DNA of 46,563 nt from a virus (taxonomy: Duplodnaviria > Heunggongvirae > Uroviricota > Caudoviricetes). Every line of letters starts with the position of its first letter. The first letter of the stretch is position 1. The translations under genes were made by a program, and so were the position numbers. The notes beneath the pieces were generated by a model. It was not told where the DNA came from and ran no database searches. It saw nothing but the letters and a program-made list of their open reading frames with translations. The DNA is taken from the IMG/VR virus record IMGVR_UViG_2721755658_000005, positions 1 to 46,563 of that record; one strand, written 5' to 3'. This document shows, in pieces, positions 6,307 through 10,087 of the stretch.

Positions 6307-6386
6307 GGAAATCATTCAATACTCGCACTATCGGAAGTTCACCAGCCAACCGCAGCACGTTCTTGCATACGACATGCCTGCGGTTT
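6307..6386. repeat. Copy A of a ~80-bp repeat family with hairpin-forming 3' part
   Basis: About 88% identical to 8982..9061; its 3' half recurs at 10044..10087. Confidence 0.7.
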
Positions 6387-6535
6387 CAACTCCCGCCAGC
6401 TCCACCAATCATGATTGGACGGTTAAGGACAACACCAATAAAAACAGGAAGTTAGCAGTCTCAGCAGGACACCGACCAGACGGTGAGGAGACAAAAAAGG
6501 ATACGCAAAGGAGCCGCGGCTCCCGAGTGACAAAA

Positions 6536-6560
6536 AAGCCCGCTTATGCGGGCTTTTTTG
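6536..6560. terminator. Bidirectional rho-independent terminator candidate
   Basis: aagcccgc-ttat-gcgggctt hairpin flanked by an A-run on one side and a T-run on the other; lies just downstream of the Bro-N gene stop. Confidence 0.6.
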
Positions 6561-6576
6561 TTTTTTTCCCTCAAGC

Positions 6577-7338
6577 TCACTGACGTGTTCTTGCCTCAAC
6601 TACTTTCTGGTATATAGCGATAGCTTCATCAACCAAAGCTAATGGATAGCAAGAATTTATATTCAATCCGGAGGGGCACTTAATTCTTTCTGCTCCACGT
6701 TCACTACGCAATTTTTCACACCATTGCCAAAGTTCCTCAACTGAATAGGTATCCAAACCTAACTCCATCAATCGTTGAGGAACACTTCTGAACTGAGACA
6801 AATCTCTTAAACTTTCTAACGAGTTAACTTTTAGTTCAACTTGGTTTACTCTACTTTCTAACTCTTCACGTTTTTCTATTTCCATTACCAATGCTTGAAC
6901 CGTCTGCTGCAGACTGTTAGCAAAAGCACTCAGTTCTGAACGTTCTTGTTTAGGTGGCGGAGGATATACACCAAATTCACGAATAGACGGAAGGACCTGA
7001 TGAAAAAGCCAGCGTTGGAATTTTTTCCCCGCAGCAGTAGTATCCTGAGCAAGTACTCTATATAGACCTGGTTCAGTAAGAAATACCTCAGAGATAGTTT
7101 CACCATCCACGACAAGAGAAACATTCCTAAACTCATCTGGATCTAAAGTTTTTATTACCGCTTTTATTACAGTGAGCAAGCTTTGAGAAGTCTTTCCATC
7201 CAGTTTTCTGTTCTCAGCAGAAAGCGTTCTTAGCACATCTGAAAGTGAAACAAAAATCTGCCCTTTTTCATTCATGCTACGGATATAATTTTCTCCACAC
7301 TCTCCTTCGTAGCATAATTGTAACAAATTCTTTTGCAC
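6577..7338 (-). CDS. Bro-N domain protein (phage antirepressor-like)
   Basis: N-terminal region ends in the Bro-N signature EPGLYRVLAQ...FQRWLFHQVLPSIREFGVY; coiled-coil C-terminus. Confidence 0.65.
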   Translation of the reverse strand: MQKNLLQLCYEGECGENYIRSMNEKGQIFVSLSDVLRTLSAENRKLDGKTSQSLLTVIKAVIKTLDPDEFRNVSLVVDGETISEVFLTEPGLYRVLAQDTTAAGKKFQRWLFHQVLPSIREFGVYPPPPKQERSELSAFANSLQQTVQALVMEIEKREELESRVNQVELKVNSLESLRDLSQFRSVPQRLMELGLDTYSVEELWQWCEKLRSERGAERIKCPSGLNINSCYPLALVDEAIAIYQKVVEARTRQ

Positions 7339-7671
7339 GCCATCCCCTCCTTTTTTTATGGATTATACATCCTATAAACATGTTGTCACCGAAAGGGAAA
7401 AGCATAAACCCAATTTATGTTCCACAAGATGTTCAAAAATCAAACAACCATATAGCTGAGGAGCACAAAAGAGCAAAAGTTTACCAACCCCATATATCCA
7501 TACAGCACATAAAATTGACACTACATGTGGTATTTTTTAAGTTACGCCTTGCACCATTTCATGGTTTTATGTAGATTGTCATCACACGCTGAGATTAAAA
7601 AATTCTACAATTTTTGTTGATCTTGAGTTTGGTTTTTAGTATAAGTGAGCATGGATTGTAGGAGGCGCAAC

Positions 7672-8022
7672 ATGGTAACTAGCTTTGGTAAGACTCTCAG
7701 AAAAATGAGAATAGACCGGGGTATGGTGCTCAAAAATATGGCTGATCTGTTAGGCGTTAGTTCGGCTTACTTATCCGCCATTGAATTAGGCAAAAGAGCT
7801 ATACCGGACTCATTAGTAAATACGATTGCAACAACTTTTGAGCTTAGCGGACAAGACATCATCAATCTCAAGAAACAGGCAGAGATTTCTCAACCGTCCA
7901 TTAAGGTTGATATGTCGGATGCAAATGAGCAGAACAAAGAACTAATGCTTGTTTTTGCTCGTAAATTTAAGGACCTGAGTCCAGAGCAACTCGATAAGCT
8001 TAATAAAATGTTAAAGGACTGA
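7672..8022 (+). CDS. XRE-family helix-turn-helix transcriptional regulator
   Basis: HTH region MADLLGVSSAYLSAIELGKR; aggagg RBS 6 nt upstream of the ATG at 7672 (tracked ORF starts at GTG 7645). Confidence 0.7.
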   Translation: MVTSFGKTLRKMRIDRGMVLKNMADLLGVSSAYLSAIELGKRAIPDSLVNTIATTFELSGQDIINLKKQAEISQPSIKVDMSDANEQNKELMLVFARKFKDLSPEQLDKLNKMLKD

Positions 8023-8025
8023 ATA

Positions 8026-8559
8026 ATGATTGCGAAACGAGAACTTGGCCATCGCGTTTCACCTCTCAGCACCAGCATGATTAAATCATACGCTCATCGT
8101 CTGAGAGACGTTCTTCAGATATCAAATCACACATATCTGAGACTGGATGTATTACTAGAAGGTCTTATGGCCTCAGAAAGCATTGAGCTAGAAATTGTTG
8201 AAGATCATGAACTGCCCAAACGCTATGCAGTGACTTATCCAGATAAGAACAAAATTGTTTTACAGCGATCTGTTTACGATGCAGTGTGCAATGGTGAGAA
8301 CCATGCGAGATTCACTGTTGCGCATGAACTTGGTCATTTAGTCATGCATCGCAATCAAAGTATCTATGCACGTAATAAGACTAGTGGAGGGCATAAAATC
8401 TATGAAGACAGCGAATGGCAAGCAGATGTTTTTGCAAGCCACTTCTTAATTGACTCAAGACTAGTTTTGCCCACAATGACTGTTGAAGATATAAGCAAAA
8501 CATTTGGTGTCAGTCAACAAGCGGCTGAAACCTGGATGAGAAAAAATGCAAAAAGATAA
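8026..8559 (+). CDS. ImmA/IrrE-family zinc metallopeptidase
   Basis: HEXXH motif in TVAHELGHLVMH; starts 3 nt after the HTH gene stop, the classic HTH-ImmA pair. Confidence 0.7.
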   Translation: MIAKRELGHRVSPLSTSMIKSYAHRLRDVLQISNHTYLRLDVLLEGLMASESIELEIVEDHELPKRYAVTYPDKNKIVLQRSVYDAVCNGENHARFTVAHELGHLVMHRNQSIYARNKTSGGHKIYEDSEWQADVFASHFLIDSRLVLPTMTVEDISKTFGVSQQAAETWMRKNAKR

Positions 8560-8684
8560 CGAAAAAGCCAGCGAACCGCTGTCGCTGGCTTCTCCTATCG
8601 TAAGCAAATACGAAAAACTTGGCGGTTGTGAGTATACGCTTACCTTAGGTTTTGTCAACAGCGAAACTTTACAGGTAACACGAT

Positions 8685-8828
8685 ATGACCATTGAAAAAG
8701 CTGTATCTGAGGAATACATCACAATTTACCGTCCTTTTATTACGGTCAAAGGTAAACGGATCTTTGCTCGTCAAAAAGGCTTGGCAGCCTTTCCTATCAA
8801 AATTCCTGCCTCTAAGTATCGAGGATAA
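8685..8828 (+). CDS. Small ORF (47 aa), hypothetical or gene remnant
   Basis: ATG-initiated frame MTIEKAVSEEYITIYRPFITVKGKRIFARQKG; below the ORF-track length cut-off; weak RBS. Confidence 0.25.
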   Translation: MTIEKAVSEEYITIYRPFITVKGKRIFARQKGLAAFPIKIPASKYRG

Positions 8829-8981
8829 TCTTTGCTAATCTTAGGCCCTTTTCTAGGGCCTTTTATTACACTTCTGTTACGCGCACCACAGATAGAGTTT
8901 CAGCTAAAACTTTTGTTCATACCTAGGAGTCTGCTGACGAGTGGTTTGTTCACTAATAAACACGTAAAAACGGTAACGGCT

Positions 8982-9061
8982 GGACATCATTCAATATTCG
9001 CACTATTGGAAGTTCACCAGCCAGCCACAGCACGTTCTTGCATACAACGTGCCTGCGGTTT
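8982..9061. repeat. Copy B of the ~80-bp repeat family
   Basis: Aligns to 6307..6386; hairpin gcacgtt-cttgcatac-aacgtgc followed by a T-run. Confidence 0.7.
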
Positions 9062-9249
9062 TTGAGACCGGTCCGATCATCAAACGAAACATAAAATTAG
9101 CTCACACTATGAGGAAAAGTATCTTTTTTTACTATGTAAATTCAAAGAATTAGCCTCATTTACCCGATAGTTTTCTCAACACTACTGGTTGTGAGCCCTT
9201 GCAATGTTCATTAATATACGTCTCACAAATAATTCATAGATATTGCAAA

Positions 9250-10023
9250 ATGGATATTACTGAGTTTCCTTCTGGAGTAATTGAACACCTTGGCTGGTAT
9301 GTATACCGATTGATTGATCCGAGGGACGGAAGCACCTTCTATGTAGGGAAAGGCAAAGGTAACCGCGTATTTGCCCATATGCGCGGTGAAGTGGCAGCGA
9401 CTGATGATGACGAGTTACTGAGCAACAAGCTAAAGCAAATTAGAGAAATAAGGTTAGCAGGACTTGAGGTTATCCATGTCATCCATCGACACGGAATGAC
9501 TGATGAAAAGACGGCGTACGAAGTTGAAGCAGCACTTATTGATGCCTACCCTGGGTTAACGAATATCATGAATGGTGCTGGCAGCAATGAATTCGGCGCC
9601 GCGCATGTCAAAGAGTTGATAGCAACATATCAACCCGAAACCATAACATTTCATCATAAAGCATTAATGATTTCCGTTAACAGAAGTGCAAAGGATTCAG
9701 AGCTTTATGATGCGGTTCGATTTAGCTGGCGCATTAATGTCTCTCGCGCCAGCCAAGCAGAAGTCATTCTTGCTACTGTAAGGGGGATCGTTCGAGGGGT
9801 TTTCATTGCTGATAAATGGCTCAAATCAACACGTGAAAATTTCCCTACGATGAAATACTGGGACGAGGATCCGGACTTTGAGGCAACACAAAGTTCTCGC
9901 TATGGTTTTGAAGGTCGAGAAGCCCCACCTGAAATAGCAAATCTTTATCTTGGAAAAAAAATACCAGATGAATTAAGAAAAAAAGGAGCTATGTCCCCGG
10001 TCCGTTACTCACCTAATTTTTGA
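9250..10023 (+). CDS. GIY-YIG nuclease-domain protein with uncharacterised C-terminal domain
   Basis: N-terminal [29 protein letters not shown] matches the GIY..YIG..R pattern; alternative TTG start at 9199. Confidence 0.6.
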
Positions 10024-10043
10024 GTCTTTAAGTGATAAGCATA

Positions 10044-10087
10044 AACCGCAGCACGATCTTCTTCCATACGACGTGCTACGGTTTCAT
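10044..10087. repeat. Copy C (partial, diverged) of the repeat family; likely bidirectional terminator between convergent genes
   Basis: aaccgcagcacg...cgtgctacggtttcat matches the 3' hairpin half of copies A and B. Confidence 0.55.

Follow-up and report, generated by a model that had tools for sequence, protein, structure and literature searches.

The three repeat copies that bracket the accessory cassettes of this prophage belong to a conserved, structured boundary element of E. coli temperate phages, which lies between the att/int side and the 3' end of late tail-fiber genes (tfa or pin), and accessory cargo genes accumulate at its position. The first-pass annotation had proposed the copies as modular cassette boundaries. 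Boundaries they are, but they are not local duplications left by cassette insertion; the copies are orthologues of a widespread and already reported phage element, each brought, as we read them, with its own arm.

In the window (the whole 46,563-nt stretch of DNA analyzed), a repeat finder, BLAST and a covariance model together confirmed the three copies that had been claimed, i.e., full copies A (6280..6386, plus strand) and B (8955..9061, plus strand) and the hairpin-only copy C (10043..10087, plus strand; repeat called by BLAST and the covariance model). Copies A and B shared 93 of 107 nt (87%, repeat finder); similarity had been put at 88% over 80 bp, and in that 80-bp frame it was slightly higher (73/80, 91%). 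By BLAST, copy A matched copy B at E = 4.7e-33 and the partial copy C at E = 1.9e-6. The covariance model, built from 35 homologues and applied to the whole window with its filters disabled, matched 6275-6393 (124 bits), 8950-9068 (119 bits) and the hairpin of copy C (28.9 bits), where the homologous part ended at 10091. No fourth copy was detected in the window, the next matches of this model having E > 0.03. The likeness between A and B ended abruptly at both edges of this non-coding element of ~100 bases. To the left of copy A, a non-coding conserved extension (6192..6279, plus strand), common to lambda and related thrW prophages, forms the right border of the variable first arm; its homology started at 6192-6196 in the relatives and at 6205 in lambda.

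Each copy ended with an imperfect stem of 12 to 13 bp and an 11-nt loop, TTCTT(G/C)CATAC (-14 to -16 kcal/mol). The left arm, loop and right arm of this hairpin (P2) lie at 6348-6359, 6360-6370 and 6373-6385 in copy A, and at 9023-9034, 9035-9045 and 9048-9060 in copy B; in copy C, a left arm at 10043-10055 is followed by a 3-nt insertion (10056-10058), the loop (10059-10069) and the right arm (10072-10084). One base away from P2 is a second stem-loop, P1, whose loop is a conserved stretch of 33 nt and whose weak helix in copy A pairs 6303-6309 with 6341-6347. Among the homologues, 96.9% of the hairpin cells were paired and both sides had changed in 6 of 12 pairs, values reached by none of 500 shuffles, while the loop and a 23-nt block were nearly invariant. 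Since the stem changes are compensatory and the loops hardly vary in Escherichia, E. albertii and Trabulsiella despite the turnover of flanks and neighboring genes, the element itself appears to be under purifying selection.

Of 5426 complete E. coli genomes, 5411 had the element, with a median of 3 places per genome and never more than 10, and so did 195 phage records. In E. coli these places were prophages and one relic locus, the ykgJ-ecpE spacer. Among species representatives, it occurred in Escherichia, Shigella and Trabulsiella only, apart from one full copy on a contig that bears the label Chryseobacterium. Its position recurred as well. Lambda has two copies, a full one that separates ea31 from ea47 and a hairpin-only one between ea47 and tfa. 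The order in HK97 is int, a lambda-type att core, sib, the element and the convergent tfa, with the first base of the element directly following the annotated sib site and the att core ~190 bp away. Stx2_95 has att, dinI, the element and the convergent nleC and tail fiber; an O111 prophage has ssrA, dinI, the element and the tail fiber; Qin has ydfJ', the element and ynfT-ydfK-pinQ. In many prophages, the element starts 1 to 2 nt after the dinI stop codon. It lies at the prophage end beside exchangeable cargo in the window, Stx2_95, the O111 ssrA prophage and Qin.

The window holds an SfII-like (myovirus-type) prophage in the tRNA-Thr gene thrW. Its att repeat at the cargo end is a partial 3' copy of tRNA-Thr(CGT) (3608..3665), with its partner (45108-45165) inside the intact tRNA gene (45120-45195); this direct repeat is 58 nt long and 91% identical. 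A 387-aa ORF (43942-45105) that ends 3 nt before the att repeat is a putative integrase. As had been noted from the sequence, the copies bracket a Bro-N/HTH/ImmA block (6577-8559) and a GIY-YIG gene (9250-10023). The first cargo arm (4081..6107, minus strand; Pfam and PADLOC) contains an ABC-type ATPase (4081-5793; AAA_15/AAA_21, resembling AriA, Old and GajA) and a 94-aa ORF (5823-6107), and relatives have retron Ec48, an S1 peptidase or other genes in this slot instead. The second arm (6577..8559; Pfam and PADLOC) encodes a Bro-N protein (6577-7338, minus), a CapH-like HTH protein (7672-8022, plus) and a CapP-like ImmA/IrrE peptidase (8026-8559, plus), and its homologue in phage LLS is the att-proximal arm (76% identity over ~2.4 kb). 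It is followed by a decayed 3' remnant of a dinI-like gene (8871..8956, plus), identified by alignment to dinI of Stx2_95, which reads ...SAKTFVHT*ESADEWFVH* and ends 1 to 2 nt before copy B. The third arm (9250..10023, plus) is the GIY-YIG nuclease of the single-gene defense system PD-T4-3 (full-length PADLOC match, E = 2.4e-140; Pfam LEM-3_GIY-YIG). Next comes pin (10084..10674, minus), a Pin/Gin-type serine DNA invertase (Pfam Resolvase and HTH_7) and the first gene of the tail-fiber end, whose stop codon (10084-10086) is overlapped by the last base of copy C; the pin 3' end is the commonest right neighbor of the element. The cargo arms carry mostly anti-phage defense genes, and the 2.6-kb and 1.0-kb cassettes flanked by the copies, which lack an integrase and phage core genes, are read as remnants.

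Two junctions of the array adjoin tRNA/tmRNA-type att cores, which the first-pass annotation had missed. An ssrA (tmRNA) 3'-end fragment, GCGGtTTCAACTCCCGCCAGCTCCACCA (6380..6407, plus strand), overlaps the end of hairpin A and is identical to the genuine ssrA gene at 27 of 28 positions, from the T-arm to CCA. The sequence following copy A corresponds to the annotated attP, or "tmRNA pseudogene," of phage LLS, with LLS homology starting at 6380, and Rfam gave a weak tmRNA match at 6380-6396. The end of hairpin B is overlapped by an anticodon-arm fragment of tRNA-Ser(CGA), read on the reverse strand, CGGTTTTTGAGACCGGTCCG (9056..9075, listed on the plus strand), with 19 of 20 positions identical and indirect Rfam support. 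In EDL933, the PD-T4-3 cassette is joined at the anticodon loop to a tRNA-Ser 3' fragment comprising the T-arm, the long variable arm and the CGA anticodon loop; the gene for this tRNA is, we assume, serU. At both junctions, identity runs from the stem-loop toward the gene end, as expected of tRNA/tmRNA-type cores. Judged by sequence, 6380-6407 comes from a phage integrating at ssrA and 9056-9075 from one integrating at tRNA-Ser, each being the att core of that phage. The secondary sites that such phages would have used have overlap regions that match the ssrA and tRNA-Ser loops only partly. With only two junctions, the coincidence of att cores and element edges could also be microhomology (GCGG/TTT) or one founding event spread by homologous recombination.

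A comparison with related prophages revealed several states of the array, with one, two or all three copies. Four relatives (L118, L124, L080 and L094) had a single copy beside pin, strain L725 had PD-T4-3 and one hybrid copy with the left arm of A and the right arm of B, and three relatives (L006, L007 and L009) had the full array, indicating that cassettes are gained and lost at the element. In L025, the module order differed, with the tRNA-Ser arm first and then the ssrA-like core. Homology breakpoints fell at the element edges or in the loop. The 94 copies sampled combined 35 left-flank families with 24 right-flank families, the pin 3'-end flank being joined to 11 different left-flank families, and the PD-T4-3 unit of ~1 kb was found in other contexts, in at least four flank combinations. 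These copy states, breakpoints and reassorted flanks bear out the suggestion that the copies mark cassette boundaries and act as recombination substrates.

We hold with about even confidence that a boundary element, a stacking of three arms, a series of recombination steps and a transcript-end role jointly explain the array best. Three ancestral phage arms, each consisting of an att core, cargo and a boundary element, would have been stacked head to tail: the thrW att, the ATPase arm and copy A; an ssrA-type att core, Bro/HTH/ImmA, the dinI remnant and copy B; and a tRNA-Ser-type att core, PD-T4-3 and hairpin C, with pin and the late genes next. A phage whose integrase was of another tRNA or tmRNA type would have recombined at the 3' edge of the element in a resident prophage (between GCGGT and TTT...), an edge that resembles a tRNA stem/loop half-site. 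Homologous recombination between the two late-gene sets would then have deleted everything but the att-proximal cargo arm that had come in. Cassettes would later be deleted or swapped by homologous recombination between copies, which the invariant loop segment of 17 to 19 bp would favor. We infer this stacking, by prophage-into-prophage recombination followed by deletion, from the sequences of the end states.

As for its role, the element is probably a transcript-end hairpin (a terminator or a 3'-UTR module) for att-side transcription, e.g., of dinI, and transcription ended there would converge on the late operon. The earlier idea of a shared 3' UTR gains some support from the element following the dinI stop codon so closely in many prophages and from the dinI remnant before copy B. 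Of the description "terminator-like," the stem stood, but the loop (11 to 13 nt) is too long for the consensus terminator scan, which did not list the three hairpins, and the T-tracts after them are modest (TTTCAACT, TTTTTGAG and TTTCATTT). An intrinsic terminator would be expected to have a G+C-rich stem, a loop of 3 to 8 nt and five or more T in the 8 nt that follow. The 8 nt after the stem-closing GCGG/ACGG contain 4, 5 and 6 T in A, B and C, respectively. For 39 distinct 8-nt tails, counted from one base later, the mean was 3.7 T versus ~2.2 expected at a 27% background. T-rich tails followed the hairpin in most unrelated right flanks; some families had only 2 T, and several had no T-tract. 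The predicted hairpin therefore suggests a terminator only weakly. A plain terminator also offers no explanation for the invariant loop or the invariant 23-nt block. A canonical bidirectional intrinsic terminator (6529..6562; 15-bp stem, T and A runs, Rfam terminator-type leader matches) separates the ssrA fragment from the Bro gene.

It is possible, although unlikely, that the element is instead a true att, dedicated to site-specific recombination, with strand exchange in the hairpin loop by a phage integrase acting in trans; integrase-less cassettes (PD-T4-3, lambda ea47) would in that case travel as small circles, in a way that recalls integron cassettes somewhat. This would fit an invariant spacer flanked by inverted repeats, the reassortment of left and right arms at a switch point in the loop (at least five left arms occur with the right arm on the pin side), the A-left/B-right copy of L725, cassette homology that often begins at 9040, inside the loop, and the several flank combinations of PD-T4-3. 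It would also fit the naming of the element as an att sequence in Nakamura 2021 (PMC8112680) and in the HK633 record. However, an integrase using the element is neither known nor was one found here, the element lies apart from attP wherever an att is defined, as in HK97 (lambda-type core), Qin (ydfJ), the Stx2 phage and the thrW prophage of the window, and a spacer of 11 to 13 nt with a variable bulge in one arm is atypical for tyrosine-recombinase cores. No identical tract is longer than the loop (18 bp), where homologous recombination would therefore cross over too, and matched arm pairs travel with different left parts, so some crossovers fall outside it. In the literature, att status was deduced from flanking repeats. 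The "attP" note of the HK633 record derives from similarity. As attP/attB of a cognate integrase, the element was rejected, HK97, Stx2_95, Qin and the window prophage all using other att sites.

The consulted passages of Nakamura 2021 (PLoS Pathog, PMC8112680) describe a sequence of 96 bp that resembles the ykgJ/ecpE spacer (~81% identity) and flanks prophages lying inside other prophages, and propose prophage-in-prophage integration as a route of cargo accumulation. Our copies A and B matched the same K-12 ykgJ-ecpE spacer (88.5% over 87 bp and 81.7% over 104 bp) at 304.2 kb (L005 6222-6325, minus strand). Because of this shared match, and of matches in the Stx/PPompW phage records of the Nakamura group, the element appears by description, as far as those passages allow, to belong to the attB-in-PP_2 family. 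Both lie at a prophage end beside exchangeable cargo, with prophage-in-prophage accumulation proposed for each. By those passages, attB-in-PP_2 flanks whole lambda-like prophages with T3SS effectors in STEC, whereas the element studied here flanks integrase-less defense cassettes in an SfII-like prophage at thrW, and in the window no two copies stand as attL and attR of a complete inserted prophage. Neither the hairpin and its covariation nor the invariant loop, the lambda and HK97 copies or the ssrA and tRNA-Ser att cores are mentioned in the consulted passages. For the phage copies, that paper gives a chromosomal origin; the order at the ykgJ locus (element, ykgJ, tfa fragment) suggests the reverse direction, from phage to chromosome.

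Rather unlikely, in our view, is a regulatory sRNA or 3'-UTR-derived RNA acting in lysogens, made of P1 with its conserved 33-nt loop and P2 as terminator hairpin, with the recombination point only a by-product. The two adjacent stem-loops with near-invariant loops, the placement directly after the dinI stop, the T-rich tails and a TAAAAT box at the conserved left edge would all suit such an RNA. Against it, the alignment has no conserved -35 element ahead of that box, only 80% of P1 is paired, single mismatches being frequent, and counts of G-T versus A-C mismatches gave no clear strand signal. Rfam 15 gave no family match on the element, with nothing meaningful at E up to 10 (its only gathering-score match in the whole window was the tRNA), and the literature search found the element sequence in no paper.

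We regard it as quite improbable that the element is a functionless, hitch-hiking linker homology, its three copies here being products solely of unequal crossing-over or relaxed homologous recombination between phages with different cargo. In its favor, phage recombinases of the Rad52-like kind exchange short sequences that have diverged, Red-beta needing ~30 bp at least, and homology traces flank many mosaics (De Paepe 2014, PMC3945230); mosaic patterns also occur inside the left part of the element, and the L725 deletion is what A x B homologous recombination would produce. As at those mosaic joints, a short conserved non-coding sequence borders exchangeable modules, and exchange is plausibly by Rad52-like recombinases on diverged homology of ~30 to 100 bp. 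Unlike them, the bordering element keeps to one defined genome position in several phage types and is itself under selection, as its compensatory stem changes and near-invariant loops imply, and a mere linker would leave the two att cores at the junctions without explanation. A generic REP/ERIC/BIME repeat, the kind of element that would have overturned the first-pass annotation, or a chance similarity is effectively refuted, despite the presence of the element in nearly all E. coli genomes. Such repeats number tens to hundreds per genome and lie in core intergenic regions; the element occupies 1 to 10 places, in prophages and one relic locus, and is tightly associated with cargo borders, with BLAST E-values down to 1e-33 and covariance scores of ~120 bits.

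The array also invites comparison with other systems. Like lambda sib/tI, the element is structured and lies just past attP on the strand transcribed from int, but its sequence differs, it lies beyond sib, and it is not known to be cut by RNase III or to act in retroregulation. Integron attC arrays likewise have imperfect inverted repeats with an extra-helical base, promoter-poor cassettes in one direction and cassette ends within a hairpin; attC identity was nevertheless rejected, the RYYYAAC and GTTRRRY boxes being absent from the alignment, the element sequence strongly conserved and the loop invariant. Unlike integron cassettes, those of the window begin with tRNA/tmRNA att cores. The Pfam scan, which covered the cassette genes and pin, found no integron integrase among the former, pin is a serine invertase, and the sole integrase-like ORF seen was the one adjacent to thrW.

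Finally, as at the P2/P4 defense hotspots of prophages and satellites reportedly described by Rousset et al. in 2022, a fixed locus between conserved anchors holds alternative defense systems, here PD-T4-3 (the E. coli PD systems are said to be those of Vassallo et al., 2022) and the ATPase arm, with retron Ec48 or an S1 peptidase in relatives. Unlike those hotspots, the locus belongs to SfII/SfV-like phages and is subdivided by boundary-element copies and relic att cores; it is presumably the place where Shigella phages carry gtr serotype-conversion genes. The moron concept, which reportedly dates from Juhala et al. in 2000, is a further point of comparison. We regard the array as an ordinary but instructive case of phage mosaicism.

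A 58-nt repeat (3608-3665 and 45108-45165) corresponds to the 3′ portion of tRNA-Thr(CGT), whose intact gene lies at 45120-45195, and a putative tyrosine integrase ORF stops 3 nt short of the repeat copy at 45108-45165. Given this thrW att repeat and structural genes 97% identical to those of the Shigella phages SfII, SfI, SfIV, and SfV, we consider the window to be an SfII-like prophage in thrW. The hairpin-bearing repeats studied here are located in the region that separates the distal att copy from the pin invertase and tail-fiber genes. Its genes code for an ATPase of the ABC type (AAA_15/AAA_21), accompanied by a small partner ORF, for a Bro-N protein, for an HTH protein paired with an ImmA/IrrE peptidase (7672-8559; CapH/CapP-like by score), and for a full-length PD-T4-3 of the GIY-YIG type (E=2.4e-140). 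CapH and CapP are regulators described for CBASS and other defense operons; downstream of the pair at 7672-8559 there is no obvious effector operon, only two small ORFs (8546-8828), and a Bro-N gene lies upstream on the opposite strand. In comparison with three related loci (L006, L007, and L009), the segment from the thrW att copy to the first repeat (3666-6191) is a variable defense slot. Here it is occupied by the ABC ATPase and a 94-aa ORF; SC476 has retron Ec48 (reverse transcriptase and effector) in its place, PEC422 an S1 peptidase, and LR-62-2 unknown genes. In the Shigella relatives SfII and SfV, gtr serotype-conversion genes occupy the matching slot. Immediately past pin, tail-fiber and tail-fiber-assembly ORFs lie in opposing orientation, two on the plus strand (10665-11159 and 11162-11605) and one on the minus strand (11577-12179), and the layout of 10665-12179 appears typical of an invertible host-range segment. 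Elsewhere, at 38903-38977, four overlapping tandem 15-bp units of the CAGATTTTGACGGGT type have the appearance of early/replication-region iterons or operator repeats.

The first-pass annotation had proposed that copies of a hairpin-containing repeat delimit accessory cassettes in this stretch, and the copies were confirmed with a repeat finder, by alignment, and with a covariance model. The repeat finder paired 6280-6386 (copy A) with 8955-9061 (copy B) at 87% over 107 nt; identity is 93/107 in this full frame and 73/80 in the 80-bp frame first described, and the likeness drops to background just beyond either edge. The third, hairpin-only copy (copy C) aligns from 10043 to ~10087 once one gap and 3 inserted nt are allowed for. 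A covariance model derived from 35 homologues and run over the whole window with filters off retrieved only these three copies (124, 119, and 28.9 bits), the next match having E=0.03. All three close with an imperfect stem of 12-13 bp and an 11-nt loop, TTCTT(G/C)CATAC. Because this loop is too long, the hairpins were not listed in a consensus terminator scan, which placed the canonical terminator of the region at 6529-6562.

This boundary element, as we call the repeat, is widespread: a 131-nt query matched 195 phage records and, with roughly 18,000 copies in all, 5411 of 5426 complete E. coli genomes. With 1 to 10 places per E. coli genome (median 3), the element does not qualify as a REP-type repeat. 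A species-level scan located it in Escherichia, Shigella, and Trabulsiella only, plus one odd contig labeled Chryseobacterium sp. 18061, which carries a full copy with a compensatory stem variant (L131, 1763-1880); the Bacteroidota label probably reflects contamination or mislabeled enterobacterial DNA. Degenerate derivatives retain half of the loop and the right arm only, joined to a dinI-side flank (L055, ~10064-10100 on the minus strand, and L113), or have lost ~38 nt from the left part (L075 and L101), and simple pattern searches therefore undercount copies.

The position of the element is constant among the phages compared. In HK97, the order is int, a lambda-type att core, sib, the element, and a convergent tfa; in Stx2_95, an att repeat and dinI precede the element, followed by convergent nleC and tail-fiber genes; an O111 prophage has ssrA, dinI, the element, and a tail fiber gene; and Qin of K-12 has a truncated ydfJ, the element, and ynfT-ydfK-pinQ. 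Lambda carries two copies: a full one (minus strand, 24,162-24,274) separates ea31 from ea47, and the spacer from ea47 to orf-194/tfa holds the hairpin alone. A divergent subtype lies ~350 nt from pphA in L100 (1-1400) and similar IMG/VR contigs, followed by NleG-type effector genes or directly by pin, an arrangement that suggests a prophage site beside pphA with the same cargo swapping.

In an alignment of 35 distinct copies, 96.9% of the cells in the hairpin were paired. Six of its 12 pairs vary on both sides, one of them being AU in 21 copies, GC in 6, CG in 3, and GU in 5; none of 500 shuffles reached the observed pairing values, and pairing collapsed in slid registers. Variation is almost absent from the loop and from a 23-nt block, CATTCAATACTCGCACTATCG, also in E. 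albertii and Trabulsiella; one position of the right arm is a variable or missing bulge. A second helix, GGCTGG/CCAGCC, shows some compensatory changes and is just 80% paired. Judged from this alignment, the element is under selection. G-T versus A-C mismatches (32 vs 26 overall; ~20 vs 12 by eye among true copies), counts that are confounded by shared ancestry, single out no strand.

Most simply, the element itself would serve att-side transcription, which converges on the late operon, as a transcript-end module, because it starts directly behind sib or the stop codon of dinI, because hairpin-only copies lie between convergent stop codons, and because the T-rich tail is kept in most unrelated right flanks. 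This role leaves the invariant loops unexplained, and a specific protein or RNA partner is therefore possible. The element is annotated "attP" in the HK633 record on the basis of its resemblance to the ykgJ-yagV spacer; a role as the attP of adjoining integrases was considered and rejected, as it is contradicted by HK97. Presumed integrase-adjacent loci, with the element 1372 nt from the contig start, gave no support for an attP either, the actual neighbor being what we take to be the chromosomal phosphatase gene pphA. Likewise, where an integrase lies ~300 nt away beside a gene we recognized as dusA, a different att is in use, that of dusA-type integrases. A coding sequence was rejected, as the conserved columns are contiguous without 3-nt periodicity and stem variants would alter residues in the frame inspected, and so was a tRNA-like gene, ARAGORN giving tRNA-Thr alone. 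No Rfam family matched the element at the gathering threshold or at E≤10 (matches at 6490-6600 are an ordinary terminator), a promoter scan of the element gave nothing convincing beyond a -10-like TAAAAT with no conserved -35, and no match to its literal sequence was found in the papers searched. The template/variable repeat pair of a diversity-generating retroelement was dismissed, since the A/B differences are ordinary transitions and not adenine-specific, and the window holds no reverse transcriptase; a likeness of the hairpin base (AAACC ... GGTTT) to Pin/Gin crossover sites was set aside as overinterpretation.

Comparison with relatives also bore out the proposed association with cassette borders. 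In related thrW prophages, the ATPase arm (4081-6107) is swapped for retron Ec48, an S1 peptidase, or others, and homology returns at 6192-6196. Some relatives (L118, L124, L080, and L094) have one copy joined straight to pin, strain L725 has a single hybrid copy with PD-T4-3 behind it, and others have the full array. The L725 copy takes its left arm from A and its right arm from B, so the switch occurred inside the shared CAGCACGTTCTTGCATAC tract. Among 94 copies in the fetched loci, 35 left-flank and 24 right-flank families are combined, and the pin-side flank pairs with 11 left-flank families. The ~1-kb PD-T4-3 unit is found in several flank combinations, including beside a restriction-modification pair next to tfa and in EDL933, with breakpoints in the loop (9040), in the right arm (9053-9056), and at 10044, 10059, and 10083-10086. 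On these comparisons, cassettes really do appear to turn over at the element.

The junctions carry att-type sequences. Positions 6380-6407 (GCGGtTTCAACTCCCGCCAGCTCCACCA) are the ssrA 3′ end from the T-arm onward. In phage LLS, GCGGtTTCAACTCCCGCCAGCTCCACCA is annotated as attP/tmRNA pseudogene, the adjoining LLS genes are homologues of Bro, HTH, and ImmA (76% identity), and the homology of LLS to the window begins exactly at 6380. Positions 9056-9075 (CGGTTTTTGAGACCGGTCCG) match the anticodon arm of tRNA-Ser(CGA), read on its reverse strand, at 19/20, and in EDL933 the PD-T4-3 cassette is joined at the tRNA-Ser anticodon loop to a tRNA-Ser 3′ fragment that includes the T-arm, the long variable arm, and the CGA loop. 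Copy B follows the decayed 3′ end of a dinI gene. The array thus reads att(thrW), ATPase arm, copy A; ssrA-type att core, Bro/HTH/ImmA, dinI remnant, copy B; and tRNA-Ser-type att core, PD-T4-3, hairpin C, then pin. The order differs in L025, where the tRNA-Ser arm leads and is followed by an ssrA-like core. The hairpin end (CTGCGGT/TT, slash marking the edge) resembles both ssrA (CGCGGG/TT) and tRNA-Ser (CTCCGGT/TT).

The element appears to belong to a family previously reported as an att-like prophage sequence. In Nakamura et al. 2021 (PMC8112680), a 96-bp "attB-in-PP_2", ~81% identical to the ykgJ/ecpE spacer, flanks lambda-like prophages sitting inside other prophages, its att status being deduced from attL/attR repeats. 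Their 21-bp attB-in-PP_1, sought in the fetched loci as a sign of a phage inserted at PP_2, had no match there. Among 40 sampled records spread over the ranking, none showed the ~50% query coverage that a ykgJ-ecpE spacer split by a prophage would give. The core-genome copy (E. coli strain E5, 870-1516 of L173; K-12 NC_000913.3, ~303.8-304.5 kb) is ordered ecpE, element, ykgJ, and a convergent tail-fiber-assembly fragment; it is surrounded by phage debris, and prophage copies carry ~150 nt homologous to the ykgJ start. Rather than having given rise to the phage copies, the locus looks like the fossil of a prophage cargo locus, and ykgJ like domesticated cargo. The spacer with the tfa fragment near ykgJ is the map position of the published small RNA EcsR2; EcsR1 and EcsR2 (PMC4350180) were rejected as the element itself, as they map elsewhere, in the uspF-ompN and yagU-ykgJ spacers.

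Most likely, we infer, the arms were stacked by the cargo accumulation route of Nakamura et al., here acting on defense genes. Ancestral phages would each have had one boundary element beside the late genes. A phage with another integration type would have recombined at the 3′ edge of a resident element, through its integrase acting on a secondary site mimicking a tRNA stem/loop or through microhomology, and recombination of the two homologous late regions would then have deleted everything but the incoming att-proximal arm. Repeated insertion and deletion would have stacked the arms, and homologous recombination between copies, favored by the invariant tracts and phage Rad52-like recombinases, would now remove or exchange cassettes, as in L725. 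An unlikely but further-reaching reading is that the hairpin 3′ edge (GCGGT/TTT...) is an evolved tRNA stem/loop mimic, a promiscuous docking site for several tRNA- or tmRNA-targeting integrase families, with the invariant loop and 23-nt block as recognition or regulatory parts and not merely a terminator. Docking and deletion would add the att-proximal cargo arm of another phage (defense genes or effectors) and regenerate the docking site; if so, temperate phages would own an integron-like platform.

The process that the element marks, in which mosaic exchange and the accretion of prophages inside prophages take place at a cargo locus, was already known. What is new is the conserved, covarying hairpin of the element, its occurrence in lambda and HK97, the relic att cores of ssrA and tRNA-Ser type that adjoin the copies, and the interpretation of the array as a stack of arms. 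Lambda and HK97 are among the best-studied phages, and in them the element is an unannotated, structurally constrained noncoding one. The element is a sequence-defined landmark of cargo gain and loss in E. coli temperate phages, with PD-T4-3, retron Ec48 (in relatives), T3SS effectors, lambda ea47, and apparently also the core gene ykgJ among its cargo, and scans for it would delimit cargo loci across thousands of prophages. The ssrA- and tRNA-Ser-type relics at the junctions suggest that insertion of prophages into prophages, proposed as the way in which STEC accumulates effectors, builds defense arrays as well.
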